Of a DNA stretch of 48,969 nt, positions 32,687 through 47,416 are shown one piece after another. The notes under the pieces were generated by a model. The model made no database searches. It was not told the origin of the DNA and saw nothing but the letters and a program-made list of their open reading frames with translations. Source of the stretch: Gemmatimonadota bacterium (lineage in GTDB: Bacteria; Gemmatimonadota; Gemmatimonadetes; Gemmatimonadales; JACORV01); the NCBI GenBank assembly GCA_016179225.1, contig JACORV010000012.1, positions 1-48,969 of the forward strand. Direction: 5' to 3'. The position numbers were made by a program, and so were the translations under genes. Position 1 is the first letter of the stretch, and each line of letters begins with the position of its first letter.

Positions 32687-34612
32687 CTAGAACACGCTCA
32701 GCTTGTACCCGACGGTCTTGCTGGCCGAGTCCCAGCCATTCACGTAGATGTTGTACGTGCCCGCCGGCATGTTGTTGATCGTGTGGTTCTCCGGATTCCC
32801 CGCGGTCGCGCCGGCGAAGCCGAAGGGGAAGGCTGAGCAGCTCGCGTTGCACACCAGCAGGTCAACGTCGGGATTCGTGGCCCCGCCGGCGCCGGTGCCG
32901 CCCATATCGAGCCGGATCGTCACGGTGACCGCGGTGGCCAGCGTGAAGGCGAAAAAGTCGTCGGCGTCGGTGCCCACACCCTGGCCGTTGCCGTCAACGG
33001 TGCCGTAGATCACGAGCGGGTTGGCCGAGGTCGCGCCGGCAAGACTGATCGCCACCGCGCCGGGAGCGTCGTTCGCAGGCTCATTCCCCTCGGTGGTCGT
33101 GGTGCCGACCGTGATCGTGCCGGCCGTGGACATGGTCGAGACCGTTGCCCCGCTCACCACCACGTTGGTTACCTGAACGGCCGACGTGCCGGAGAGGTTC
33201 GTGAGCAGGTACAGCGTGTCCGAGGCGCGGCGAAGGACGAACGCCTGGCCGCTGTTGATCGTCACGTTGGACGCGTTGGCGCCGCTGGTCGTAAAGTCCG
33301 CGCTCGCCCCACCGATGACCAGGACCGTGTCCAGGAGCCCGGCGGCCCCTAGCTGCACGACCGTGCCGGGGAAGGGCGCCGCGTTGATCGTGCTGCTGCC
33401 GGTGGTCCGCAAGGAGTCAACCACGCTGCCCGTAGCCGTCACGTTGAGGTTGGTGACCTTGACCGTCCCGGCGTAGGCGTTGGTCGAGATGACCACGATC
33501 GAGTCGGCCGTGTTGACCAGCTTCGTGCCGTTCGCGGTCCCAAGCACCACGTTCGAGGAGGTTGTGCTGAAGGTCATGCCTGCGAGCGGCGTCGCTTTGA
33601 TCTCCGTGCTAGCCCCCAGCGGGCCGCTACGAACCACGACTTGCGCATCCGGCAGCGCGGCGGCGTTGACGGTGCTGCTGCCGGACGTGCGGAGCGAATC
33701 GATCGTCGCGCTGGTGGCCGTCACGACCAACGGTCTGACCATCACGGTGCCGGTATACGGCGTGGTCCGAATCGCCACGAGCGAGTCCGCCGAGCGGAAG
33801 ACCAGCGGAGCGTTCACGCCGGCGAGCACGACGTTGGACGCGGCCGCGTCGAACGTCATCCCGGTCGGCGGCGTGACCTTGAGGAGCGTGCCGGCACCGA
33901 ACGTGGCGCTCGTGTTCACCGCCACGTTGGCGGCCGGCAGGGTGGCCTGGGCCACTGTGACGTTCTCCGCGGTGGGGAGCGACGCCAGCGGGACCGCGTT
34001 GGCGCCCGAGCCGCCGCTGAAGAACAGGTTGGTCACCGTTGCCACACCCGTGTAGGGCGCGCGCGCGAGCACCTTGAGAGAAGCGGCGCTCCGCGAGAGC
34101 AGATACGAGGTATTGCCCCCGAGGAGAATGGTCGAGGCCGTCGGATCCCACGCGTAGCCTGCGGGCGCGTTCAGGCTGACCGTATCGCCGGCGACGCTCG
34201 CGGCGCCGGCGGGCACCGTGGTGTTGGGCACCTGGGTCACCCGGACGGAATCGCTCACGCCCCTCGCGGCGACGCGCACCGTCGTGACGGCGCCGTTGTC
34301 CGTGGCGGCGATGATGTAAACTCTGGACGAGCCGTCGTTCGGCAGCTGCTGGGCCGCGACGTGCACGTCCGCGACCGCCGCGTTGTCGGTGGACCAGGAC
34401 GCTCCGGTGATCGGGAGGATGCTTCCCTGGTCGTCAAGGAGGCGCGCCTCGACCAGGACGCTGTCTCCGCTCTTGGCCAAGTACACAGCCGACCTGGACA
34501 GCGAGATCGCCGCCGGGCCGTTGCGCAGCGAGCTCGTCGGGTCGTCGAAGCACCCCGCGATGCCGGCGGTGACCAAGGCAGCCGTGATGAGTCGCACACT
34601 CTGACGCTTCAT
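32687..34612 (-). CDS. Surface lipoprotein with Ig-like N-terminus, about four ~95-aa beta-rich repeats and a C-terminal PPC-like domain
   Basis: Lipobox IAGC; T/S/A/V-rich repeats; EGNEPAND...DADDFF...DVDL...GTYNIYV. Confidence 0.8.
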   Translation of the reverse strand: MKRQSVRLITAALVTAGIAGCFDDPTSSLRNGPAAISLSRSAVYLAKSGDSVLVEARLLDDQGSILPITGASWSTDNAAVADVHVAAQQLPNDGSSRVYIIAATDNGAVTTVRVAARGVSDSVRVTQVPNTTVPAGAASVAGDTVSLNAPAGYAWDPTASTILLGGNTSYLLSRSAASLKVLARAPYTGVATVTNLFFSGGSGANAVPLASLPTAENVTVAQATLPAANVAVNTSATFGAGTLLKVTPPTGMTFDAAASNVVLAGVNAPLVFRSADSLVAIRTTPYTGTVMVRPLVVTATSATIDSLRTSGSSTVNAAALPDAQVVVRSGPLGASTEIKATPLAGMTFSTTSSNVVLGTANGTKLVNTADSIVVISTNAYAGTVKVTNLNVTATGSVVDSLRTTGSSTINAAPFPGTVVQLGAAGLLDTVLVIGGASADFTTSGANASNVTINSGQAFVLRRASDTLYLLTNLSGTSAVQVTNVVVSGATVSTMSTAGTITVGTTTTEGNEPANDAPGAVAISLAGATSANPLVIYGTVDGNGQGVGTDADDFFAFTLATAVTVTIRLDMGGTGAGGATNPDVDLLVCNASCSAFPFGFAGATAGNPENHTINNMPAGTYNIYVNGWDSASKTVGYKLSVF

Positions 34613-34648: not shown

Positions 34649-36064
34649 TTACCGCTGAATGAAGTGCATCACTTCCGCGATCAGCTGGCTGTCCGTCGTG
34701 AGGCCCCTAATCCAATTGAAGGGGACGTTGTGGTCGTACGCGTTCTCTACCACGTCGTTCGTGCCGGCCAGTACGTAGTGCCCGAAGCTCGTCGCGTCAT
34801 AGAACGCGTAGTACCGTCCCCGGCCGCCGTGCGTGTACAGCCACACCTCGAAAGCCCGCGGATGCGCCTGGGGGCGGCGGAACACCTCCGTCGGCTCCCC
34901 GTACTTCAGGTAGACTCGGCCCCGGTCCGTCCGCCATCCCGGGATCTGCGCCCCGCCACCCTCGCGGTACGCCTGGTTCGCGTGCCGCACGCCGCGGTAG
35001 AACGCCTCCTGCAGCGGATTGTCGGGCGTCGCGGGTGTCGGGTCGCGGTGCCGCCAGAACTCCGCGAGGAAGCGGCGCTTGCCGGCCACTTCCAGGTTCT
35101 CGTAGACGCCGCGCTCGTTGGGTTCCAGCAAGTACGCGAGCGGGGAATACAACGAGTCCAGCGTCTCCTCGCTCAGATCATTGAACGAGCCGGCCGCGGC
35201 CGCCGGTGCGGGGCCCAGGGCCACCGTCGGCCGGTCCGGCCCCATTGAGAACGCGCTTTCGACGGCGGCGGCGGTGTCCTGAAGGACGACCGTCGCGCGC
35301 ACCCGGTAGCTGCCTTCCGGCAGTCCCGCCAGGTCCATCGTGCCGCGCGCCACGCCCCCCGTCGCCCCGACACGCAACTGCTGCGGCGCCGCCCGCACCA
35401 GCGTCCGACCCGCGTCGGTCACCACCTCCAGGTTCAGCTGCGCCGTGCCCCCCGCGAACCCCGGCCACGGGTAGATCTCCGTGTAGTACGTCAGGGCCGC
35501 GGCGCCGAACGTCAGATGGGGTACCGGCCCGGTGCGCAGCACCCACCGACCCCGGCGGATCTCGCCGGGCAGAGGGCTCGCGCTGTCGGCCGCCTCGCGG
35601 GCCGCCGTCGCCAGGAGCAGGTCCGAGACAAGCGGACGCGCCGCGAAGGCGCCGATGTCCGTCACCCGCTCGAGCGCCGCCCCGCCGTCACTGGACGCGC
35701 GCACCGTGATCCGATAGCGGCCTGGAGCCGCGGCGAAGTGGAACGACTCCATCGCCGTGGCGCCCGCAGCGCGAGCGGCGACCGTCGGCAGCTCGCGCGT
35801 CCAATCGTTCCGCACCAACTCCAGGCCGCTGCTGTCGGCGATCACGATCTCCACCCGATACCTGGTCGTCGGGGCGGAGGCCGGGGCGAGCCCAATGAGC
35901 CGGATCTCGCTCGTGCCCTCGATGACGGTAACGCCCGTGCCCGGACTGAAGAAGCGCACCGGCCGCACTGTCACCGCGGAGTCCCCTCCGCCCTGCCAGG
36001 CGGCCACTCTGAGGAGCGCGGCCGCGATCCCCCATGCCACCACTGTCGTCATCATGTCAAACAT
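34649..36064 (-). CDS. GWxTD domain-containing protein
   Basis: FW.HRDPTPAT..N, PGWRTDRGRVY.KYGEP, EVWLY; hydrophobic N-terminus. Confidence 0.88.
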   Translation of the reverse strand: MFDMMTTVVAWGIAAALLRVAAWQGGGDSAVTVRPVRFFSPGTGVTVIEGTSEIRLIGLAPASAPTTRYRVEIVIADSSGLELVRNDWTRELPTVAARAAGATAMESFHFAAAPGRYRITVRASSDGGAALERVTDIGAFAARPLVSDLLLATAAREAADSASPLPGEIRRGRWVLRTGPVPHLTFGAAALTYYTEIYPWPGFAGGTAQLNLEVVTDAGRTLVRAAPQQLRVGATGGVARGTMDLAGLPEGSYRVRATVVLQDTAAAVESAFSMGPDRPTVALGPAPAAAAGSFNDLSEETLDSLYSPLAYLLEPNERGVYENLEVAGKRRFLAEFWRHRDPTPATPDNPLQEAFYRGVRHANQAYREGGGAQIPGWRTDRGRVYLKYGEPTEVFRRPQAHPRAFEVWLYTHGGRGRYYAFYDATSFGHYVLAGTNDVVENAYDHNVPFNWIRGLTTDSQLIAEVMHFIQR

Positions 36065-36121
36065 CGTGTCCCGCCGGCCCGGCGGGGCCCGGAGGCGCCC
36101 GCCGGCCCGGCGACATCAGCA

Positions 36122-37264
36122 TTACCAGCTGAGGCTGACCGTGATCATGTTCGCGTTGCCCAGCAGGCCAAGGTTCCGGTAGGCATAGTCGAAACCGACG
36201 CCCAGGCCGCGCGGATTCCGCTGCCAGCGCAGGCCGCCGCCGGCCGACAGCCCATCGCTGCCGGGTGTCACATTCGAATCGAAGCCGGCGTAAGAGGCCT
36301 GGCTCGCCCCGGGCGGATCCAGGTTGTTGTCCGGCGAAGAGGTGTAGCCCACCCGGCCGGCCACTGAGAAGCCGCTGCTGCCGAGCCCGAGGTTGTACTC
36401 GCCGGCGAAGTTGAACCCGGGGTCGGTGTTGTTGGGCTGCGTGAACTCGCCCAGCATGGTGAGCCGACTCGCCGCGGTGGTGAACACATCGTACGACAGG
36501 CCCACCCGGAAGATCACCGGCAAGCTCCACGACTTCGACTGCAGGCGCGCCGGCTGCGCCTCCTGCGCTTCGTTGCCGACCTCCGATGGGGGCGTCCGGA
36601 TCACCGTGGCGTCGAGAGCGTTGCCGGTGTGCTGGATCGTCGTCCCCAGGTGCTGGATGACGAAGCTCGCGCGCAGCGCGCGGCCGCCGACCAAGGCGTG
36701 GAAGTTCGTGCCGAAATCCAGCGCGAACGCCCGGCCCGTCGTCTTCCCCAGGGCGTCGTTGATGTACTTCGCGTTGATGCCGGCCGCGAAGCGGTCGGAG
36801 AACTGCTGGGCGTAGGTGAAGCCGAGGGCGGTCTCGCTGACGGAGTAGACCTCGCCCGTCGTCCCTTCGGGATCGTCCACGGTGTACACCGGCTGGTCGC
36901 TGAACCCGAAGGTGGTGATCTGGAAGCCGAGCGCCCTGGAGCCCCCGAACGGGATGGCGAAGCCCACCCAACTAAGCCTGGTATCGGCGATGTACGACAT
37001 CGAGGAACCCACGAGGCCCGGCCGGGCCAACTGGGCGAGCCCTGCGGGGTTGTAATACATGGCCGACACATCGGTGGTCAGGGCGGCGAACGAGGCACCC
37101 AGAGCCGCGCCACGCGCCGTCGGAGCCATCAGCAGGAACTCGGCCGCCGTAGTGCCGTAGGGCGTGTTGTCCTGACGGATCGTCGTCTGTTGCGCCGTAG
37201 CCCTTCCGGGAGCGAGGCCCGTCACCAGGACGGCGGCGCCAATTCCGAGAATGATCTTGCGCAT
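36122..37264 (-). CDS. PorV/PorQ-family (UPF0164-like) outer-membrane beta-barrel
   Basis: Signal peptide; GTTAAEFL....ARGAALG, YYNPAGLA, G.N.KYI, DFG, FRVG.SY, FDYAY; C-terminal Trp. ATG 37264 follows GGAGG. Confidence 0.82.
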   Translation of the reverse strand: MRKIILGIGAAVLVTGLAPGRATAQQTTIRQDNTPYGTTAAEFLLMAPTARGAALGASFAALTTDVSAMYYNPAGLAQLARPGLVGSSMSYIADTRLSWVGFAIPFGGSRALGFQITTFGFSDQPVYTVDDPEGTTGEVYSVSETALGFTYAQQFSDRFAAGINAKYINDALGKTTGRAFALDFGTNFHALVGGRALRASFVIQHLGTTIQHTGNALDATVIRTPPSEVGNEAQEAQPARLQSKSWSLPVIFRVGLSYDVFTTAASRLTMLGEFTQPNNTDPGFNFAGEYNLGLGSSGFSVAGRVGYTSSPDNNLDPPGASQASYAGFDSNVTPGSDGLSAGGGLRWQRNPRGLGVGFDYAYRNLGLLGNANMITVSLSW

Positions 37265-37316
37265 CGTGTGCCTCCACACGGGCCAGGGCCTTTCGCCCCG
37301 GCCCGTGCCGGTTGGG

Positions 37317-40300
37317 TTACTGGGCGAAGTTGACGACCGTAAAGCGGCCGATCCTGGTCCGGCCGTCCGGCGACTCGACGTGATAGAAGTACACGCCGCT
37401 GGCCACGAACTGGTTGTTCCGGTTGCGCAGATCCCAGACCTGCTCGCCGCTACCGGTCGGATCGTTGTGCGTCACGACGTTCACCAGGATCCCGCTGACG
37501 CTATAGATCCGGATGATCGACTGCGCGGGCAGGTTCACGAACCGCAGCACCTTCGAGTTCGGCGTGATCTCGCTGTTGTTCGTCACGTAGTACGGATCGG
37601 GAACCGTGTGGATCCGCCGCATCATCGAATCCGACGTGACCGTCGGCGTGAACGACGTGCCCTCGTACGCGATCCGCACGTGCATCCCGGGGACGGCCGG
37701 CGGGCGCTCAGCAGCCCGGTAGCTGTACGTCCCGCCCGACTGCGAGCTGGTCCGCACCGCGCCGGTGTAATACCGGACGTTCCAGACCGTGCCCGCCGCC
37801 GGAAGGGCCGTCATCTCCATGATGAAGGTGTGGCCGGCCAGGTACATGATGAATCCGTTGCCCGTCGCGGCCGCGGTGGCCAATGAAGCGGCGCTCCCAC
37901 CAACCGTAGCGATGGGGCTGAGCGTGGCCGTGTTCTGGAGCGGAGCGGTCGAGCCGCCGCACTCGCCGATAAGCGCCGGGGCCGGCTCGATGCAGTAGAT
38001 GTCGCCCCAGGTCAGGACATTATTGCGGCCGTCACGGGTGTTGGCCGCCGGCACAGCCGCGAACGACGCGTCCGTGAGGAAGCCCCACGACCCGCGGATC
38101 ATCGGATGGAACGGCACCTGGACGCCGTGGGTGATGTCCACGATCGAGTCCACCGTGCCGCCGGCGCCCCAGTACATCTGGAAGTCGGCCGCCCGCTTGG
38201 TGTAGGCCGTGATGGCTTCGAAATTCCGGCCCGGGACGCTGCTCGTGGTGTTGTACGACTGGAGCGTCATCACCGCTGTTACGCCGGGCAGCGAGCCCGC
38301 CGTGCGGTTCGGATTGCTCACCACCGGGGAGCCGCCGCACGCCCCGAAATAGCACATGCCCAGGTTGGGGTCGGGCGTGTTCTCGTTGGGCGTTCCGGCC
38401 CACCAGCGCGGCCCGTTGTACGCCGACCGCGTGGGGTCTCCATTGGCATCGCCGCGGGCCTGGTTGGTCAGGCGCCAGACGCCGGGCACGGTGAATTCCA
38501 GGCTGCCGAACAACGAGAAGTTCGAACCCGCGCCGAAGCGGGCGTTTTGCGCCGGGTCCACCGGCGCCGCCTCGAACGCGGTGATGAAGCTAAAGTCCGA
38601 GCTGAACGCGTCTATGCTGACCGGGATCTCCAGCGTGTCCGTCCCGGCGGCCCCAGCGACGCGCAGGTAGTATGCGCCGTCAATGCCGTTTAGCGACGCG
38701 CCGGGAACCACCGAGTCGAAGAACAGCTCCAGATTGCCCGAGCCGCTGATGATCTGCGGCACGAAGGCGGCGAAGCCCAACGCCATGTCGGTCGGCGGGA
38801 ACGGTCCGGAGAAGATGCCCGTCACCGGATCGATGGTGGGCACCGGGATGTCGGGAACGACGCTGCCGTCGGCGCGGATGAACTGCGGCGCGCCGAGGCT
38901 GCCTGCGGTCTCCTGGCCTGACGCCGACCGCGGGGTGATCGACTTGGTCACCAGCGGCGAGGACAGGCTCGAGGGGCCCGAGGCCAGGCTGTTCACGTCG
39001 AACGCAGTCACGGCGTAGAAGTAGCGGTAGCCGTTCCTCACCGAGTTGTCCTCGTACGCGAACGGCACGCCGGTGTCCTGGAGGCCGGGGAAGCCGGAGC
39101 CACCACCGGTTACGGCCGTGTCGGCCACGGTGATAAGCACGGTGCCGTTTGCCAGCGCCACGCGGCCCTGGGCGGCGACCTGCACCGCGCCGGGGAACGA
39201 CGGACCGAGGACCGCCAGCGGGATTTCGTGGTAGTTCACATACGGCGGCGCCGTGGCGAACGTCGCGGGGCACGAAGCCGTGATCCCCAGCTCCGGCGCG
39301 CACTGGTTGGCGCCGTCGGCGTTGTTGTAGTCACCGTTGAAGAAGGCGCCCGTGTAGTCGCGGATCGCCGGATGTTCCGCGGTAGTCTTGTAGTCGAACT
39401 GGGCGATCATCTCCATGGTCGCGGGGCTGCGGCCACGCCAGACCCGGTAGCCTTCGACGTCGAACTCACGGAAGTTGGGGTCAAAGAGCTGGCCCGACGC
39501 CGGGTTGCTCGCGACCGCGAAATACGGATCGCCCACTGTTTCCGTGTTCGACGCACGCCACACGACCGTCACCCGGTTGTTCGAAGGGACCAGATAGAAG
39601 TCCGGTGCCTCCGGGGCGAACGGCAGCAGGAACTGGTTGTCGAACACGCCCTGCGCCACCAGCGCCTTGTCCAGCAGCGAGCCCCTGACGACGCTGATCT
39701 CCCTCGGGATGCTGAGCACGGTGACGTCGTTCCGGATGACGGTTCGCGGCTGTTCGATCACGCCGTTGCCGTTCAAGTCGGCGTGACTGACCCATCCCAT
39801 GGTCCGGTCGATCAACCGAAGGGTGTCCAGCCCGGTGACCAGCCGGTCGCCCGCCGGGACGATCCCTGGCAGGAGGTTGGTGTTGCCGATGTACGGCCCG
39901 AGGCTGTAGGTCGGCGCGCCCGGGTTCGTCAACAGGGCGGGTGCCGCCATGTACGCCACCACGACCACCGATGTCTGGCCGGGGGCCAGGCTGAAGGGGC
40001 CGCTCGACTGCATGGTGCGCTGGTCCGAGGGCGCCTGCGTCAGGAAGCACAGGCGGCGCGCCGGAACATACTGGCAACTGTTGTTGTCACCAAAGGTCGG
40101 GCTGGCCGTACCCTGCATGTACCGGTAGCCCTGGGTAATGTTGATTGGGTCAGGGAAGAGCGAGTTGGGCGCCGACGGGTTGGTATAGGTCGAGAAAATG
40201 GTGATGCCGAATTCCTGGTTGGTCGCCGGGTCGATCGGGCTCTTGAGGTACTTCACGCCCACGAAGCCCGGGGCGGAGGCGAACGGCGGGGTGAAGATGT

Positions 40301-41309
40301 TCGGCGGGAACTGCCAGGTCGACTCCCGCCAATCCGACTTCCAGGTGACGCCCAGCGAGAACGGCAGCGCCGCGGAGGCATAGTTGTTGGTCGCGTCGCC
40401 GACGTCCATGTCGGCCGTGAACGCGACGAACATGTTGTCGATGGTGTAGCCGGCGTCGGGGATCGCGACGTTGAACGCCGCCTCGGACTGCGACTGGAAG
40501 AGGTCTCCCAGCGCACCCACCTCGGCGATGTCCGCGGCGGTGTATCCCAGGCTGGACAGGCCGGCGTACGCGCCCGACGAGGCCCTGGCGGTGATGTTGG
40601 TGAACCGGAAGATGAAGTAGATGAGGTCTTCATTGCCGGTGGGGAAGTTCCACGCCAGCGACCGCTGCTCGACCAGCACACCCATCGTGTGGCTGCGGCC
40701 CGTCACGAGGCTCGGGGCGCCGTCCCAGTAGCGCATCCACGTGTCCTGCTGCGAGACGTTCGCGCGGCACTCCGTGAGATCACCCGCGAGGCACTCCGGT
40801 TTAATGAGGGACGGGTGGAAAAGGGAGGTGTCCCGCACGTAGGCCGCCGACGGCCAGTTTGCGACGTCGTCGCTGTTGAGCGAGTTGTAGATCCCGGTCA
40901 GGCCCTGCATGTGCTCGGCCGGGCCCCGGGTATCAATCGCCCAGGCCCCGACGGTGTCGCCCGCCCACGCGAAGCCGGCGTTGGCCGGGATGATGCCGGC
41001 GAGCTGGATGCCGGTGTTGAAGACGTACTGGTCCGGCGTACCGCGCGGCCACGACCCGCCGCCCAGCACCGGGCTGCCGGTCACGTCCGTGCAGACGTTG
41101 CCCGCGTCCGTCAGACCGCAGTAGAAGCGGTTGACCTCGAGGCTCAGGCTGGGCGCCCCGGCGAAGAGCTGGAAGCCGCGCCGGGCCGCTGCGCGCGCCC
41201 GGGGACCCGGGCGCTCAGGGCGAGTGGCCTGCGCGGTGCTAGCGGCGAGCACCGACACTCCGCCCACCAGCACACCGGCCATCGCCAACCGCTGTAGAAC
41301 ATTCGTCAT
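37317..41309 (-). CDS. Large secreted protein (1330 aa) with Fn3-like region and T9SS type-A-like C-terminal domain
   Basis: Signal peptide; EGYRVWR...Y.Y.VTAFD; C-terminus VPDPY...LRFVNLP...IRIYSVSG.LV...WDLRN...VASGVYFYHV. Confidence 0.8.
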   Translation of the reverse strand: MTNVLQRLAMAGVLVGGVSVLAASTAQATRPERPGPRARAAARRGFQLFAGAPSLSLEVNRFYCGLTDAGNVCTDVTGSPVLGGGSWPRGTPDQYVFNTGIQLAGIIPANAGFAWAGDTVGAWAIDTRGPAEHMQGLTGIYNSLNSDDVANWPSAAYVRDTSLFHPSLIKPECLAGDLTECRANVSQQDTWMRYWDGAPSLVTGRSHTMGVLVEQRSLAWNFPTGNEDLIYFIFRFTNITARASSGAYAGLSSLGYTAADIAEVGALGDLFQSQSEAAFNVAIPDAGYTIDNMFVAFTADMDVGDATNNYASAALPFSLGVTWKSDWRESTWQFPPNIFTPPFASAPGFVGVKYLKSPIDPATNQEFGITIFSTYTNPSAPNSLFPDPINITQGYRYMQGTASPTFGDNNSCQYVPARRLCFLTQAPSDQRTMQSSGPFSLAPGQTSVVVVAYMAAPALLTNPGAPTYSLGPYIGNTNLLPGIVPAGDRLVTGLDTLRLIDRTMGWVSHADLNGNGVIEQPRTVIRNDVTVLSIPREISVVRGSLLDKALVAQGVFDNQFLLPFAPEAPDFYLVPSNNRVTVVWRASNTETVGDPYFAVASNPASGQLFDPNFREFDVEGYRVWRGRSPATMEMIAQFDYKTTAEHPAIRDYTGAFFNGDYNNADGANQCAPELGITASCPATFATAPPYVNYHEIPLAVLGPSFPGAVQVAAQGRVALANGTVLITVADTAVTGGGSGFPGLQDTGVPFAYEDNSVRNGYRYFYAVTAFDVNSLASGPSSLSSPLVTKSITPRSASGQETAGSLGAPQFIRADGSVVPDIPVPTIDPVTGIFSGPFPPTDMALGFAAFVPQIISGSGNLELFFDSVVPGASLNGIDGAYYLRVAGAAGTDTLEIPVSIDAFSSDFSFITAFEAAPVDPAQNARFGAGSNFSLFGSLEFTVPGVWRLTNQARGDANGDPTRSAYNGPRWWAGTPNENTPDPNLGMCYFGACGGSPVVSNPNRTAGSLPGVTAVMTLQSYNTTSSVPGRNFEAITAYTKRAADFQMYWGAGGTVDSIVDITHGVQVPFHPMIRGSWGFLTDASFAAVPAANTRDGRNNVLTWGDIYCIEPAPALIGECGGSTAPLQNTATLSPIATVGGSAASLATAAATGNGFIMYLAGHTFIMEMTALPAAGTVWNVRYYTGAVRTSSQSGGTYSYRAAERPPAVPGMHVRIAYEGTSFTPTVTSDSMMRRIHTVPDPYYVTNNSEITPNSKVLRFVNLPAQSIIRIYSVSGILVNVVTHNDPTGSGEQVWDLRNRNNQFVASGVYFYHVESPDGRTRIGRFTVVNFAQ

Positions 41310-41384
41310 TATCCGAACTCCTTGCCAGTTGTCCGGCGGCGGCGCCGCGCCCTTGGCGCGCGGCGTCGCCCCCGTTCACGTGCG

Positions 41385-44300
41385 TTAGAAGTGCAGCTCG
41401 AACCCGATGCGCATATTGAAGCCCGGGCCCTTGAAGATCTGCGGCCCGCTCCACCCGTTGTAGTACGCGTCGAACGCCCGTTGCTGCTCGTCCGCGCTGA
41501 AGATGCCGTCCGGGGTGCCCGTAGCGTAGCGCCGCTCGGCGCCGCGCAGCAGCAGGCAATCCGGCACGCCCTTGGACCCGTTCGGCCCGTAGGGGTAGGC
41601 GGAGCAGTCCGTCAGGTCGATGGAGCCGTCCGCTTGCACCAGGCCGCCCGCGTCGTTCCGCAGCGTCGTGAAGATGTCGGTCAGCTGCTCCGTCTGGTAG
41701 CGCTCGTTCCGAACGTCACCCGTCTCGGCGAAGAGCCCGGCGATGTTGGTGAAGTTGAACAGGTTCCGGAAGTCGGCGAAGGCCGTGACGTCACGGTCGC
41801 CGCCGAGGCGGAACCCGCGGGTCACGCGCAGATCCACGTTCTTGATCCACGGCGTGCGCGACGCGTTCAGGGGCTCGGCCGCGAAGCCGCCGAGGCCGAA
41901 GGCGTTACCGGGAGCCTGCTGCCCGTTCCCGTCGTTGATCATCTTGGTGTACGGCAGGCCGCTCGCGAAGCGGAAGGTCGCGAAAAAGCCGAAATCCTGC
42001 AGCAGAGAGCCGTACCAGTCGCCGGACCGCCAGCCGTGCGGAAGGCTCAGCGAGCCGCTGCCCGCGATGGTGTGCGTCCGGTCGTCACGCGTCGGCAGCA
42101 GCGCCTGCGCCGGCGGCGTGCGGTCCTGGGTCACGGTGCTGATTTGCCGCGACGTGGTGCCCAGGTACTCGAACGGATCCGAGCCGGTGCTACCGGCCCG
42201 CTGGAAGGTGTAGGACAGCGAGCCGGCGAATAGCGATCCGGAGCGGGCGTCGAGCTTGATGTCCACGCCGCGCGAGTTCCCGAAATCCTCGTTCGTCATC
42301 ACGTTGTAATTGATGAGCCGGCCCTGGAACACGTCGTTGAAGCCGACGATGCGGGCGGCGAGGTCCGACACCTTGTCCTTATTGTAGGCCGCAATGTCGA
42401 GGACCAGGTCGTCGCTGAACGCGTGCCGGATGCCGAACTCGAACAGGATGGAGCGCCCGTAGCGCAGCGGCGAGCCGTAGGTGGCGTTGGTGTTGTAGTA
42501 CGACGCGTCGCCATTGGCGCGCTGCGCCATGCGGTTGAAGTCCGGCTGCTGCACCTGGTGCGAGTACGACAGGCGGAAGCCCGTCCGGTCGGTCACGGGG
42601 AAGGAGACCCGCAGCGACGGCGAGAGCCGCGAGCGCGTCGGCGCCTCGACCATGTTGCAGGTGGAGAGCGCCACCGAGTCGGCCGCGGTGGCCGTGCCGC
42701 CGCTGACCAGTGTGAACAGCTGGCCGCAACGCTGGCCCATCGCCGTATCGGCGGCGGTGTATGCCACCGACAGGTCACCCTGCCGCAGCGGATCGTTGAA
42801 GGTGCGGGGGAAAGCCCGCGCGAAGAGCAGGTCCGGGTTGAACCGGTCGTACCGCAGACCGACCTCGATCACCAGGTCCCCGAGGTCGAGGCGGTTGTTC
42901 GCGAACAGGCCGAAGCGGCTGGGCGTGTTCCGGTAGGCGTCGAGCCCGAAGAACTCGTTCATATCGCTCGTCCAGGCGTCTTCGGTCGCACGCAGCCAGT
43001 CGCCGCCGAAGCGGACGCGGTTGTAGCGGTCCGCCTGCCAGTCGAGGTTGACGCGTGCGGTCAGCCGCGATTCCCGCGCGAGGACGGGGTTCACGTCGGC
43101 GTAGCCGCGGTCCGTGAAGCCGACGCCGGAGTTCACGCCGTACGGGTTCTGCCGGTAGAGCGCGGTGGTGGCCAACAGGTCCTGCCGGCCCACAAACGGG
43201 ATGCAGGCACCCACGGTGCCGGCGCTGGTCTGCCGCGTGCTCTGGCAGACGGCGCCCCCCAGCCGGACATTTGTGATCAGCTGGTCGTCGATCGGGAAGT
43301 TGTCCCGGTTGACGAGGAACTCCATGGACGACGTGGAGAACCAGCCGAACGGTTCGCGGTTGTCCTCGAACCAGGACGGGTCCAGGGCACCGCTGATGAA
43401 GTCGTCCCGCTGCCAGCTGGCGTTGGCCTCGAGGAAGAGCGCCCGCTCGCTGGAGCGCGCGAGGTTCTGCGTGTAGTTGAGGATCAAGGCCCGCGAGGTC
43501 TGGCGCTGGCCGCTGCGGGCTTGGGGGTTGTACAAGCCGAAGAAGGGCTGAACCAGGCTCTGGTCGCGGCTCGCCAGGTACGTGATAGACGCCCGAGAGC
43601 CCGTACCAAATGAGTACTGCAATTTCCCGTTCATCGTTAGGGCGTCGGACCACGCGTCGGGCCGCCGCGACCCCTGCGAGTAACGCGTAAACGCCGGGAT
43701 GCTCACGACGGCCGAGTCGGAAGCCGGGTTCCCCGGGTCTTTCGGGACCGTCACGGTCCCGTTCGGAGCCTCGGGATTCGACGTGTCGAACCCGTTCTGC
43801 ACGTAAATGGGCACATCCTCGGCGCCCTTGGGCTGCCGGATGTTCTGCTGGCCGGCGAGCGTGGTGCCGAGGAAGAAGGTCAGGTTGCGCGCAATCGGGC
43901 CGCCGATGCTGGCCTCGACGCGGTGCAGCCCCTGACCGTACGTCTCGCCGGAGAGCTCGTCCGTCGAGTAGCTCAGCGTCCCGCGGAAATCCGAGCCTCC
44001 CGCGCGCGTCACCATGGAGATGACGCCCGACTGGGCATCGCCGAACTCCACGCCGATGGCGCCCGTCGTGACCGACGCCTCCTCCAGCGCGTTGGTGCCA
44101 ACGGTGACCGTGCGGGCTTCCGAAACCCCGCCCGCGTTCCCGGTCGAAACGCCGAAGCCGCTGCTCAGGTTGCGGATCTGCACGCCGTCCACGTACACCG
44201 CCGCCTCACCGGGCCGGCCGCCGCGAATCACCAACCCGCGGGTGCCTTCCACCACGCCCGGCTGGAGACGCAGCACCTGGCTGATGTCGTCGGCCGGCAG

Positions 44301-44756
44301 CTGGTCGATCAGGTCGCCCTGCACGATCGGCTTCGAGGTCACCTGGTCCCGCGGCACGATCGGGTTCGCCTCGACCGTGACCGTGATCCCCGTGACCTCC
44401 ACCGCCCGCGCCTCGAGCGTCAGGTTCACCGTCATCGTTTGCTCGGCGAACACCCGGACGTTCCGGACCTCGGCAGGAGCGTACCCGATATACTGCGCCC
44501 GGATCGCCATCACGCCGGCCGGCACGTTGTTGATGAAGTAATACCCCTGCTCGTTCGTGCTCGCGGTAAATGCGGATCCCACGACGAGCACCTGCGCACC
44601 GACGACCGGCGCGCCCGCTTGATCCCTCACCGTGCCTTCGATCTTGCCGGTCGTGCTCTGAGCGGCGAGACGGCCCGCTCCGAGCAGCGCCACGGCCACT
44701 AGGGCCGTCGCCGCGCGAGCGAGGCGAGAGAAGGCCCAGCGACTACGTTGAGTCAT
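41385..44756 (-). CDS. TonB-dependent receptor with carboxypeptidase-regulatory-like N-terminal domain
   Basis: ATG 44756 follows GGAGG; signal peptide; TGKIEGTV.D, GYYFI.NVP.G, IRGGR.GE...YVDG, EFGDAQSGVI, GLRYD, SP.LRVSFPV; C-terminal Phe. Confidence 0.9.
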   Translation of the reverse strand: MTQRSRWAFSRLARAATALVAVALLGAGRLAAQSTTGKIEGTVRDQAGAPVVGAQVLVVGSAFTASTNEQGYYFINNVPAGVMAIRAQYIGYAPAEVRNVRVFAEQTMTVNLTLEARAVEVTGITVTVEANPIVPRDQVTSKPIVQGDLIDQLPADDISQVLRLQPGVVEGTRGLVIRGGRPGEAAVYVDGVQIRNLSSGFGVSTGNAGGVSEARTVTVGTNALEEASVTTGAIGVEFGDAQSGVISMVTRAGGSDFRGTLSYSTDELSGETYGQGLHRVEASIGGPIARNLTFFLGTTLAGQQNIRQPKGAEDVPIYVQNGFDTSNPEAPNGTVTVPKDPGNPASDSAVVSIPAFTRYSQGSRRPDAWSDALTMNGKLQYSFGTGSRASITYLASRDQSLVQPFFGLYNPQARSGQRQTSRALILNYTQNLARSSERALFLEANASWQRDDFISGALDPSWFEDNREPFGWFSTSSMEFLVNRDNFPIDDQLITNVRLGGAVCQSTRQTSAGTVGACIPFVGRQDLLATTALYRQNPYGVNSGVGFTDRGYADVNPVLARESRLTARVNLDWQADRYNRVRFGGDWLRATEDAWTSDMNEFFGLDAYRNTPSRFGLFANNRLDLGDLVIEVGLRYDRFNPDLLFARAFPRTFNDPLRQGDLSVAYTAADTAMGQRCGQLFTLVSGGTATAADSVALSTCNMVEAPTRSRLSPSLRVSFPVTDRTGFRLSYSHQVQQPDFNRMAQRANGDASYYNTNATYGSPLRYGRSILFEFGIRHAFSDDLVLDIAAYNKDKVSDLAARIVGFNDVFQGRLINYNVMTNEDFGNSRGVDIKLDARSGSLFAGSLSYTFQRAGSTGSDPFEYLGTTSRQISTVTQDRTPPAQALLPTRDDRTHTIAGSGSLSLPHGWRSGDWYGSLLQDFGFFATFRFASGLPYTKMINDGNGQQAPGNAFGLGGFAAEPLNASRTPWIKNVDLRVTRGFRLGGDRDVTAFADFRNLFNFTNIAGLFAETGDVRNERYQTEQLTDIFTTLRNDAGGLVQADGSIDLTDCSAYPYGPNGSKGVPDCLLLRGAERRYATGTPDGIFSADEQQRAFDAYYNGWSGPQIFKGPGFNMRIGFELHF

Positions 44757-45031
44757 TGACGACCTCCAAAGGCGTGAACACGCGGGGACACGAAAAACGA
44801 ACCAGGCAGCGACACGCCACCTCCCTTCGTTCGAGCGTCCGGGAAACCCGAAACAGAATTGTGTGTGATCTGCAACGATGCTCCAACTAGCGGCCATGCC
44901 GTTAGCAGCGGCCCTGCCGCGCCCGGGCCGACCGGCCCAAGGTCACTGGCTGCCAATATGCCCTGGCCAAACAAACGATGTCAAGCGGCCCATTGTACCC
45001 TCGCGGGACAACTGTCCCCGAACGTGGACAT

Positions 45032-45569: not shown

Positions 45570-46775
45570 TCATCCGGCCCTCACGTCCAGACAGATCAGG
45601 TCCCGCTGGGGCTCCGCCGGTGTGACCTCGGGACCGCGCTCGTGCAGTACGACGTTGATCTCGCTGCGCACGCCGAAGCGGCCGGGGAGATACACGCCCG
45701 GCTCGACGGAGAACCCGACTCCGGGAAGGAGCTTGCGATCGTCGTGGGTCTCGAAGTTGTCGAGGTGCGGGCCCGAGCCGTGCAGCTCGCGGTCGATCGA
45801 GTGCCCGGTGCGGTGCACGAAATACTCCCCGAAGCCCGCGTTGGCGATCACCTTCCGGGCCGCGTCGTCCAGCTCGGCGCCGGTGACCGACCACCCCTCC
45901 CGCCACTTGTCGGCGAGCAGCGCCACCGCGCGGTCGCGTGCGTCGCGCACCACCTCGAAGACGCGCGTCACGTCGGCAGGCGGCGACGTCCCGAGGAAAG
46001 CCATCCAGGTCTGGTCCGCGTACACCGCCTCCAGCGACACGCCCGCCCACAGGTCGAGCAGCAGCACCTCGCCCGGCTGGATGGCCGTGTCGGAGAGGGC
46101 GGTCGGCTCGTGATGGGGATTGGCGGAGTGTTCGCCGGTCGCGACGATCGGGGGGGCGTCGGTGTGCAGCCCCGACCGCTCGAACGCCTCGAGCACCCAG
46201 CGCTGGAGACCCTGCTCCGTCGGCATCATACCTTCGGCGAACCAGTCGCGCACCCGCTCGAATCCGGCCAGAGCGATCTCGCGGATCAGCTCCGCGGCCC
46301 GCCGATGGCCCTCAAGCTCGGCCTCACTCCAGCGCGCCGCGATCGCGGTGACCAGCTCGGAGGAGGTCACCACCTCGGCCCCCGAGGCCCGGACCAGCTC
46401 GACCACGCCCGCCGGCACCCGATCGAGGTAGGGCACGGCGTCCTTCGCCGAGTATTCCATCGCGATGCGCTTGCCCGAGAGTACTGCGCCCAGCTCGCGC
46501 TCCAGCTCCCGCCACGATGCGTAGGTGCGGACGTCGCCCGGGAACCCGTCGACCCGATGGACCTCGATCTTGTGCGCGATCGCCGTCGGCCGCCCCACGG
46601 CCGGGATGAAGACGAACAGGCGCCGGGTCGCCAGCCCGCCGAGCCCGAGCACCCGCGTCGCGACCGGGTTGAGCCCATGGAAGTCGAACAGGAGCCAGCC
46701 GTCACAGCGCAGATCGGGCAGGATCCTGCGGATTTGCACCAGCGTCTCGGGCGTCAGGTGCTCGGTCACACTCAT
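45570..46775 (-). CDS. M24B Xaa-Pro peptidase family protein
   Basis: ANPHH, LLDLW...YADQT, HRTGHSI...HG, FSVEPGVY...GVRSE. ATG 46775 overlaps the upstream stop. Confidence 0.92.
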   Translation of the reverse strand: MSVTEHLTPETLVQIRRILPDLRCDGWLLFDFHGLNPVATRVLGLGGLATRRLFVFIPAVGRPTAIAHKIEVHRVDGFPGDVRTYASWRELERELGAVLSGKRIAMEYSAKDAVPYLDRVPAGVVELVRASGAEVVTSSELVTAIAARWSEAELEGHRRAAELIREIALAGFERVRDWFAEGMMPTEQGLQRWVLEAFERSGLHTDAPPIVATGEHSANPHHEPTALSDTAIQPGEVLLLDLWAGVSLEAVYADQTWMAFLGTSPPADVTRVFEVVRDARDRAVALLADKWREGWSVTGAELDDAARKVIANAGFGEYFVHRTGHSIDRELHGSGPHLDNFETHDDRKLLPGVGFSVEPGVYLPGRFGVRSEINVVLHERGPEVTPAEPQRDLICLDVRAG

Positions 46776-47416
46776 CGGGTGCCTTGCGCCGAGGGGGTGA
46801 GGGTCGAGCGCCACTCGCAGCGCGCGTCGCCGCGTGCCACGCATCGGCTGTGGGTCATCGCGCCGTCGAACTCCACGAGCTGCCGGAGCAGCTCGGCGAA
46901 GGCGGCTGAAAAGAACGCGCACGCCGCGCCGTCGGGCGTGGCCCGCACCGGCAGCGTGTGGGAGATCAGCGCTACCGTCGCGCCGCCGTCCCGCGCCAGT
47001 GTCGCCGCGAACACCTCGGCGGCGGCGCGGCGCGAGGCCCGGAACCCGACGGCGCGGCGCAGGAAGCGCGGCAGGCGGCGTGCGCTCCAGCGCGTGGTGA
47101 GCGCGAGTCGCCGGACCGCGTGTCGCGCAGCGCGGCGCCCGCCGTCCGCGAACACCAGCGCGGCATCGGTCCGCCGGCTCGCGAGGCGAAGGATCTGCTC
47201 GGCCTCCTCGGCGCGCACCGGCCCGTCGCGCCGCACCACGATCTCGTACCGGCCGATCTGCGCGGCGACCGTCTCGGAAAGGCCCAGTCGCTTCTTGAGC
47301 AGCTCATCCACGTACTCGGCCACCTCTTCGTCGCTGGGAGAGTCGAGGTTCCGCATCGCCTCGAGAACGGCGAGCGGGATGATGCTGTGAGCCTCGAAAA
47401 GGTCGCGTTGCGTCAC
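46772..47416 (-). CDS. Hypothetical protein with V4R-like C-terminal domain
   Basis: C-terminal AC.FF...H.RC.ARGD.RC.W V4R-type pattern. Start uncertain. Confidence 0.7.
   Translation of the reverse strand: MTQRDLFEAHSIIPLAVLEAMRNLDSPSDEEVAEYVDELLKKRLGLSETVAAQIGRYEIVVRRDGPVRAEEAEQILRLASRRTDAALVFADGGRRAARHAVRRLALTTRWSARRLPRFLRRAVGFRASRRAAAEVFAATLARDGGATVALISHTLPVRATPDGAACAFFSAAFAELLRQLVEFDGAMTHSRCVARGDARCEWRSTLTPSAQGTR

Follow-up and report, generated by a model that had tools for sequence, protein, structure and literature searches.

A putative SusCD-like uptake module of Gemmatimonadota with a type IX-tailed partner and a PorV-family barrel

What do a TonB-dependent receptor, a very large secreted protein and an outer-membrane barrel of the PorV family accomplish together when their genes stand side by side? 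This question is raised by a locus on a stretch of 48,969 nucleotides (contig JACORV010000012.1 of assembly GCA_016179225.1; in the following, the window) from a Gemmatimonadota bacterium, a member of a phylum that is abundant in soil. The contig, C145 in our numbering, is part of a 1.81-Mb, 154-contig metagenome-assembled genome (MAG) of soil type. In Bacteroidota, SusC receptors and SusD surface lipoproteins constitute an uptake mechanism, and in the T9SS (type IX secretion system) attachment complex of Porphyromonas gingivalis, PorU is held by PorV and PorZ by PorQ. An earlier sequence-only reading of the locus had proposed that a dedicated PorV paralogue anchors the large protein, via a T9SS-like C-terminal domain (CTD), beside its receptor as an analogue of SusD, or else that the genes form a minimal secretion or display unit. 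Our analyses favor the first of these ideas: we give a chance of roughly 55% to an uptake module of the SusCD kind, in which SprA exports the surface partner and a dedicated PorV paralogue holds it.

Gene order across the phylum

The locus consists, just as the sequence-only reading had described, of four successive minus-strand open reading frames (ORFs). They lie at 34649-44897 and are separated by short gaps of 36-75 nt. We use the name BIG for the 1330-residue secreted protein, and the term triad for the genes of the receptor, BIG and the PorV-like protein in that order.

41385-44756, minus strand: TonB-dependent receptor with CarboxypepD_reg and Plug matches; the ORF is open to 44897
37317-41309, minus strand: BIG, 1330 residues, with signal peptide, beta-supersandwich, fibronectin type III (FN3) domain, beta-rich C-terminal half and T9SS-type CTD
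39621-41168, minus strand: beta-supersandwich of BIG, residues ~48-563 (AlphaFold2 model and VIA-align)
39762-39779, minus strand: EF-hand-like loop DLNGNG of BIG, inside the beta-supersandwich
38916-39623, minus strand: FN3-like domain of BIG with an insertion, residues ~563-798 (VIA-align)
37320-37625, minus strand: T9SS type-A-like CTD of BIG, residues 1229-1330 (TIGR04183 and the family CTD profile)
36122-37279, minus strand: PorV/PorQ-family 14-strand-barrel paralogue, 385 residues (NF033709)
34649-36064, minus strand: GWxTD protein, 471 residues (TIGR04514, PF20094)

A scan of species-representative genomes yielded 285 confirmed stretches, and the best 80 of these, which were kept, correspond to 63 loci, all from Gemmatimonadota MAGs. 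Hidden Markov models (HMMs) built from the 63 loci were used to score the neighbors of 64 copies of BIG, provided that the contig was long enough to hold them. Upstream of BIG, the receptor gene was found in 50 of the 55 copies that could be assessed; the PorV-like gene lies downstream in 44 of 49, the GWxTD gene follows the PorV-like gene in 41 of 45 assessable primary loci, and of the 38 copies that were assessable in full, 35 have all four genes in order. The gene order is thus conserved, well beyond anything that chance would give. The copies that deviate are second, "orphan" ones (the second copy in L007, and those in L026, L032, L039, L054 and L055), and each of these MAGs has a complete operon as well. 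The copy in the window is of the "primary" type, which has the GWxTD gene and, as conserved neighbor, a gene for an M24 peptidase.

The distribution was then assessed in 201 genomes of the phylum, including the unpublished genomes G057, G157 and G182. BIG was detected in 85 of them (E 1e-10 or better; G057 is included in this tally), with a strong dependence on the family: 58/96 in f2, 0/38 in f3 and 0/23 in f7. In f10-f12, a single-sequence search matched the last ~175 residues of BIG alone, within ORFs of 1000-1250 residues. PorV-family genes are more widespread (180/201 genomes, with at least 10 per genome in f10; all three unpublished genomes are counted here), and many of them lie directly downstream of such C-terminal BIG matches. 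Sixteen distant regions were fetched and searched with the HMMs. A PorV-like gene was found in 15 of them, and the full triad of receptor, BIG-like protein with CTD and PorV-like protein in 14; the remaining two are a region that ends at a contig edge (L082) and one with BIG alone (L085). In genome G022, eight of the nine listed PorV-family genes are inside full triads, and the seven PorV-family places of genome G002 comprise four complete triads, two that are cut by contig ends and one stand-alone gene. The paralogous triads that the sequence-only reading had suggested counting are therefore numerous in other lineages, and none was found in the window's own genome, the assembly of which is 72% complete.

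The flanks of the distant triads look like polysaccharide utilization loci (PULs). They encode a melibiase, acetyl-xylan-esterase-like, GFO/IDH/MocA, xylose-isomerase-like TIM and beta-helix proteins, and a 3-keto-disaccharide hydrolase. Further products are a PIG-L deacetylase, an SSF symporter and a CTD-bearing CBM9 protein, and the regulators are of the ROK and sigma-54 types. The gene of one lone response regulator is often found just upstream of the receptor, and in L086, genes for TonB and ExbD are found directly upstream. We compared 25 triads, namely that of the window, the 14 distant ones and 10 hand-picked from 44 primary loci. The pairwise distances of BIG, PorV-like protein and receptor correlate with r 0.91-0.97, and the same groups are obtained with all three proteins. 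Paralogues within a genome differ in all three proteins, with BIG diverging fastest, which shows that the triads were duplicated and diverged as units.

The C-terminal domain, its predicted dock and the proposed export route

The tail of BIG is CTD-like, as had been proposed. TIGR04183 matches residues 1250-1323 with 23.7 bits (cut-off 23), and with 28.2 bits in the genome-wide search, and the mean column identity is 82% in the CTD and 44% in the BIG body. Such a degree of conservation is unusual for a disposable sorting signal. The best PDB match of the CTD profile is PorZ (5m11_A, E 0.012). One article describes the CTDs of RgpB, HBP35, PorU and PorZ as sharing an Ig-like sandwich (PMC11285876).

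The PorV-like protein matches NF033709 over residues 43-384 of its 385 residues with 143.1 bits (cut-off 90). Its likely start is the ATG at 37264, from which a signal peptide ending in ...ATAQQ is obtained. Since the cut-offs of the equivalog models for PorV (NF033710, 57.1/250), PorQ (NF033711, 72.8/220) and PorV2 (NF052325, 51.5/325) are not reached, the barrel belongs to a separate paralogue group, and it is a dedicated paralogue that is distinct from the PorU-adjacent PorV of other Gemmatimonadota. The sole PDB match of the family profile is PorV of Flavobacterium johnsoniae (6h3i_F, E 1.4e-10). PorV is presented, in a study that cites Glew 2017 for this point, as a FadL homologue and a proposed substrate-binding shuttle (PMC12578637).

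The CTD and the mature PorV-like protein were co-folded in three runs along with three controls, with an alignment supplied for each protein. The interaction prediction score from aligned errors (ipSAE) was 0.91 in all three runs, and the best control reached 0.00; the benchmark mark for this score is reached by 116/157 solved complexes and by 2/215 mismatched pairs. At least 87% of the contacts recur between the runs, the predicted local distance difference test (pLDDT) of the partner is at least 81, and the predicted contacts are on invariant columns (Y116, V118 and L148 in the barrel, V74-F80, R94 and T96 in the CTD). The suggested modeling of a CTD-PorV interface has thus given a high-confidence prediction. 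In one paralogue group (L075, L076, L078, L079, L081-L084), the CTD carries an insertion of ~30 residues between model positions 56 and 58, and the PorV-like proteins are longer (403-431 residues), which may be a co-variation of the partners.

The sequence-only reading had also called for a genome search for sprA, and the gene was found. The SprA/Sov equivalog model matches with 570 bits (cut-off 200) on contig C70, where the gene for the 2051-residue protein is divergently oriented beside lptF/lptG (L069:373-9248), a neighborhood that is the same in G059 (L102). SprA was detected in 70/81 genomes of the phylum, and a previous study notes that a T9SS may be present in Gemmatimonadetes (PMC11285876). 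A search for the porU and porK-N types had been recommended as well, and here the outcome was different. PorU was found neither in the window's own genome (72% complete) nor, above the cut-off, in any of 62 genomes of its class; 18/81 phylum genomes have PorU above the cut-off, all of them in f10-f12 (18/19 there), and in f11 and f12 the PorU gene precedes one of the PorV family, as in the canonical gene order. As to the motor, the models of GldM and GldN had no match in the own genome, and in the phylum GldM (TIGR03517) was found in 0/81 genomes and, above the cut-off, GldM_1st (PF12081) in 0/41 and GldL (TIGR03513) in 0/61, all in searches that lacked a positive control and are no claim of absence. 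The GldM and GldL models failed even in f10-f12, where PorU, SprA and PorV occur together with dozens of CTD proteins. This leaves two explanations: a motor that is too divergent for the Gld models, or a T9SS that is powered differently in Gemmatimonadota. The type-B CTD model TIGR04131 had no match in the own genome, again without a positive control.

BIG is the only TIGR04183 match of its genome, and also the only match to an HMM made from the CTD of the family itself. In the window's order, TIGR04183 gave 1, 1, 3, 1 and 1 matches in five near-complete genomes, and BIG is the sole match in three of them and one of three matches in a fourth. BIG and SprA are encoded on one contig in 12 of the 22 genomes that have both (11/21 without the unpublished G057), always 9-23 kb apart and on the same strand. 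In G059, the interval between the BIG operon and sprA contains ctaA, an amino-acid permease gene and lptF/G, and the proximity may therefore be inherited synteny. A second, PorQ-like barrel of the own genome (81 bits, cut-off 90) is encoded on contig C96 (L070:5619-8271), flanked by a putative aminopeptidase gene and by the gene for a 540-residue protein whose MXAN_6640-like HExxH match is weak; a further pair of a barrel and a surface protein may be encoded here.

In the uptake model that we favor, BIG would be exported first through Sec and next through the T9SS translocon SprA, by which the CTD would be recognized. The CTD would escape cleavage, as no PorU sortase was detected in the lineage, and would stay docked in the extracellular face of the neighboring, dedicated PorV-family barrel, by which BIG would be anchored at the cell surface beside the receptor. 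There, the supersandwich and FN3 domains would serve to bind the substrate, a polymer and probably a glycan, before it is handed over to the TonB-energized receptor for import.

The gene order of BIG and its barrel could also be read differently. BIG itself was considered as a homologue of PorU, as the porU-porV-like order suggests, and as a homologue of PorZ, and both candidates were rejected: PorU NF033707 does not match at E 0.1 and the fold differs, and PorZ NF052228 reaches 22.7 bits against a cut-off of 260, on the tail only, with a supersandwich and an FN3 domain in place of the two beta-propellers. A wider proposal is that BIG and the PorV-like barrel are a housekeeping part of the T9SS, a divergent counterpart of PorZ-PorQ or PorU-PorV, with the receptor as a mere neighbor. 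The succession of a large CTD protein and a PorV-family barrel does mirror the PorU-PorV pairs of f10-f12, PorZ is the best PDB match of the CTD profile, the NCBIfam model of PorZ scores on the tail, and the operon is close to sprA in 12 of 22 genomes. However, that score is far below its cut-off, and the BIG model has neither beta-propellers nor a C25 peptidase fold. Genomes with true PorU-PorV pairs have 4 to 8 or more triads in addition, BIG went undetected in 116/201 genomes, whereas 70 of the 81 sampled for SprA gave a match, and the receptor stays with the BIG-PorV pair across deep lineages. We consider a housekeeping role very improbable.

The second idea of the sequence-only reading, a self-contained secretion or display unit, would have the TonB-powered receptor-like barrel export BIG and the PorV-like barrel take over its CTD, in the manner of a T9SS without PorKLMN. 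The lack of hits for GldM, GldM_1st and GldL in the phylum and for GldN and GldM in the own genome would fit, as would the fact that every BIG has its own receptor-like barrel, which moreover shares the CarboxypepD_reg-plug architecture of Oar. Yet SprA, well above its cut-off, offers an ordinary route, and the motor models may simply be blind, given that they were used without a positive control and failed even where PorU and dozens of CTD proteins are present. A 22-strand barrel is too narrow for a folded protein of 1300 residues, the orphan BIG copies have no receptor of their own, and the neighboring catabolic and symporter genes suggest import. Such a unit is, in our opinion, unlikely. 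A variant for the window's order is that the T9SS, with no PorU, PorL/M or PorN detected, has shrunk to SprA with essentially one client, BIG, and that the TonB-dependent barrel of the triad takes over the energy coupling for which PorLM is responsible in Bacteroidota. Together with SprA, the triad would then amount to a minimal machine for TonB-linked type IX export and display, possibly ancestral to the cargo-rich T9SS and the PUL-like triads, and we regard this variant as equally unlikely.

The proposed surface protein and its receptor

If BIG is the surface partner of an uptake receptor, as we propose, it should be asked what kind of protein it is. The small features that had been read from the sequence are all present: the N-terminus is a signal peptide without Cys (MTNVLQRLAMAGVLVGGVSVLAASTAQA) and hence without a lipobox, the pairs C64/C73, C412/C421 and C670/C680 are invariant in the family alignment, and the DLNGNG loop occupies residues 511-516, with D511 and I518 invariant. 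The family has no Pfam coverage, the sole Pfam signal being a sub-threshold match to CHU_C. Named relatives, among the best 120 listed of 971 matches from 8000 scored candidates, are all hypothetical Gemmatimonadota proteins. The profile of the BIG body finds 1482, 779 and 391 representative clusters among 1.84 billion at E 1e-3, 1e-10 and 1e-30, respectively, and the ESM Atlas matches of BIG and of the GWxTD protein are only unnamed or GWxTD clusters, with Ignavibacteriota and Fidelibacterota entries among them. A PDB search with the BIG profile gave no match at E up to 1.

AlphaFold2 was run on residues 29-1228 with a 47-row alignment, and the resulting model has a mean pLDDT of 84.7 and a predicted template modeling score of 0.74, and is mostly beta. 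Foldseek gave weak matches only (best E 2.1e-4, TM-scores 0.12-0.23). VIA-align was used to compare model residues ~17-757 with 48,161 chains. Model residues ~20-535 match beta-supersandwich N-domains, with dextran dextrinase (9ju0_A) at Z 19.2, a root-mean-square deviation (rmsd) of 3.1 and 254 aligned residues, followed by glucodextranase and glucoamylase (1ulv_A, Z 18.0; 1lf6_A, Z 17.9) and by GH94/GH65/GH116 enzymes. Model residues ~535-770 match FN3 domains (4pln_D, Z 11.1, rmsd 1.8, 94 aligned; 2w1n_A, Z 10.9). According to the model, the N-domain is a galactose-mutarotase-like beta-supersandwich, the fold of the non-catalytic sugar-binding N-domains of GH15/GH65/GH94/GH116 enzymes. BIG has no lipobox Cys, no SusD match was obtained with Pfam in 18 members, and the model is mostly beta; BIG is thus no SusD homologue. 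The proposal that a PorV paralogue anchors the CTD protein as a SusD analogue is supported by comparison and structure prediction as far as the anchoring goes, and the analogy to SusD holds at most for the function.

An anchored BIG could also act as an enzyme rather than as a binding protein. It would then be a glycanase, lyase or peptidase of an unrecognized family that cuts polymers for the receptor at the cell surface. Model residues ~770-1200 are well folded and have no fold assignment, many D, E and H residues are invariant, and PUL-like surroundings would suit an endo-acting surface enzyme just as well. The T9SS cargo of Bacteroidota is often enzymatic, according to PMC11205867. Against this stands that no catalytic family was matched by Pfam in 18 BIG members, by NCBIfam for BIG itself, or in the PDB profile search, that non-catalytic N-domains gave the one strong fold match, and that the strict one-to-one pairing with a receptor is more reminiscent of SusD or of surface glycan-binding proteins. 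An enzymatic role appears to us as a serious but rather unlikely alternative to binding and handover.

The receptor that BIG would contact has the expected layout. Its ORF (41385-44897) corresponds to 1170 residues, and the ATG at 44756 (M48), which would give 1123 residues, is the likelier start because a signal-peptide-like stretch comes after M48. Pfam recognizes CarboxypepD_reg (67.2 bits, cut-off 32.3) and Plug (PF07715, 30 bits, cut-off 23.9), and the barrel part matched no Pfam model. The N-terminal CarboxypepD_reg extension is followed by the TonB-box-like GITVTVEA, a conserved NPIVPRDQVTSK linker, the plug and a large barrel. The GITVT-like strand ahead of the plug is conserved among the receptors, and it was assigned by the TonB-box consensus. 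With a plug and such a strand before a large barrel, the protein qualifies as a TonB-dependent receptor. With the SusC/RagA model TIGR04056 (cut-off 368), the receptor reaches just 29.5 bits, and the match is confined to the N-terminal extension; a PDB sequence search with the receptor gave no match at E up to 0.001. A stand-alone paralogue with 77% identity is encoded on contig C109 (L071:3881-7282), followed by a Ser/Thr kinase-TPR gene and without a BIG or PorV-like partner.

How firmly can an uptake module with a docked surface partner be advocated? The sequence-only reading had named three outcomes that would speak against it, namely a tail unlike a CTD, a gene order that is not conserved, and a missing interface, and computationally none of them occurred. 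Several other points do count against our interpretation. The margin of the TIGR04183 match is small, and Pfam Por_Secre_tail (PF18962) has no match at E 0.1. As substrate-bound PorV has already been solved (PDB 6h3i/8gl6 series), the score of the predicted complex may reflect a memory of the known interface; it measures likeness to that interface, and proves neither that this copy binds nor that it binds its neighbor alone. Likewise, en-bloc duplication and shared descent would by themselves give correlated distances of the triad proteins, which do not in themselves prove co-adaptation. The beta-supersandwich fold also occurs in proteins that have nothing to do with sugars, such as the P1 domain of YidC or amine oxidases (Foldseek, VIA-align), and the C-terminal half of BIG (~800-1228), which lies beyond the range of the fold comparison, could be catalytic. 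No sugar genes are near the copy in the window, and its conserved neighbor is an M24 peptidase gene, for which reason the substrate of this copy may be a peptide or something else. Finally, the source assembly is just 72% complete, and BIG was not found in 116/201 phylum genomes, including all 38 of f3, and is therefore an accessory trait.

Accessory genes, significance and known systems

Further elements of the window that adjoin the operon are the following.

32687-34612, minus strand: predicted lipoprotein, 641 residues, lipobox ...IAGC
45570-46922: M24 peptidase gene, upstream of the receptor and kept as neighbor in relatives
44955-44984, minus strand: TTGACA-18-CATATT, resembling a sigma-70 promoter, upstream of the receptor gene; a match to the consensus only

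The GWxTD protein is matched by TIGR04514 (85 bits, cut-off 28) and PF20094 (46.2 bits, cut-off 26.9). It has an N-terminal hydrophobic segment, and its model (pLDDT 89.7) shows two Ig/FN3-like sandwiches followed by an alpha/beta GWxTD domain. The fold matches are generic and concern the Ig/FN3 sandwiches only (RbmA, E 9.4e-10 in Foldseek; Z up to 10.5 in VIA-align); neither program gave a match covering the GWxTD domain itself, and our literature search on GWxTD returned no paper. The sequence-only reading had seen in this protein a periplasmic partner of the set. This was not supported: a GWxTD gene follows the PorV-like gene in just 3 of the 15 distant loci that have the latter (L073, L086 and L087), so that it is not part of the core, and nothing places the protein in the periplasm. 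In L036, L042, L046, L047, L052 and L060, GWxTD matches span ~2.9-3.8 kb downstream of the PorV-like gene, an indication that some primary loci carry two GWxTD genes in tandem. In family f9, a second, larger GWxTD protein of 773-789 residues is encoded on the opposite strand near the primary triad (L086:2134-4455 and L087:2283-4652), and TPR matches were found in the L086 copy, which was the one scanned. The lipoprotein gene is on the same strand, 36 nt past the GWxTD gene, and its product has repeated beta domains and a weak PPC-like C-terminus. Relatives are full-length in L006, L007 and L023 and partial in ~20 further loci, and it is possible that this is an accessory gene of the operon. 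In the model of uptake outlined above, the GWxTD protein and the lipoprotein would both be accessories of the primary copy.

Between the promoter-like site and the likely start of the receptor at 44756, a terminator-like stem-loop with a T-run is found at 44804-44822 (minus strand), which could be an attenuator. An Rfam scan of the whole window, leader stem-loop included, gave no match. The G+C content of the window is ~70%. A long plus-strand block at 2538-31899 contains the haem biosynthesis genes hemA, hemC, hemD, hemB, hemE and a hemL-like gene, genes for a chlorite-dismutase-Rieske fusion, for radical-SAM proteins with PCP_red domains and for cytochrome c proteins, as well as an aa3-type oxidase operon and ctaA.

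The design of a receptor with a surface partner is a hallmark of Bacteroidota uptake and is thought to rely on surface lipoproteins. If our interpretation is correct, the Gemmatimonadota have arrived at this design in a different way, with a T9SS-type tail that is docked in a private PorV-family barrel, and barrels of this family act as permanent anchors beyond the core T9SS. A protein family of ~1,500 clusters without Pfam coverage would thereby obtain a testable role in a little-studied phylum. The triad could also serve as a marker for substrate-uptake loci where a SusD-based prediction of PULs would be expected to find nothing, and it raises the question of what powers T9SS-type export where PorLM-like genes are not detected. 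We found no published description of the module, as judged by titles and the openings of abstracts, with most subscription journals outside the coverage.

The closest functional parallel is SusC/SusD (RagA/RagB) of Bacteroidota PULs. In both cases, the gene of a TonB-dependent barrel with an N-terminal carboxypeptidase-regulatory-like extension adjoins that of a surface partner, and there are many paralogous pairs per genome amid catabolic enzymes, transporters and regulators. The partner is, however, a helical lipoprotein in the case of SusD, whereas here it has 1100-1330 residues, is mostly beta, and carries a T9SS CTD in place of a lipobox; a third gene, that of the PorV-family barrel, is obligatory here, and the receptor fails the SusC/RagA model. 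PorU-PorV and PorZ-PorQ correspond to the mode of anchoring that we propose, in that the CTD is not removed from the surface protein, a PorV/PorQ-family barrel holds this protein, and the CTD gene precedes the barrel gene, as in the PorU-PorV pairs of f10-f12. The differences are that BIG is not a C25 sortase and also no propeller protein of the PorZ kind, that the barrel stays below the equivalog cut-offs of PorV, PorQ and PorV2, and that the pair described here is receptor-coupled and multi-copy. In Flavobacterium, type-B CTD cargo needs its cognate PorP/SprF-like outer-membrane protein, and here too, the cargo gene is followed by that of a dedicated outer-membrane barrel paralogue; the CTD of BIG is type-A-like, though, the barrel is of another family, and the receptor partner has no counterpart in the type-B systems. 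The TonB-dependent transporter Oar of Myxococcus xanthus is reportedly needed for secretion of PopC, and export through Oar is said to have been proposed. A receptor with a CarboxypepD_reg extension is thus linked to a secreted protein in that system as well, but the Oar-PopC pair comprises neither a CTD nor a PorV-family partner, and export through the receptor is unsupported in the present case, in which a neighboring barrel would hold the surface protein by its tail.

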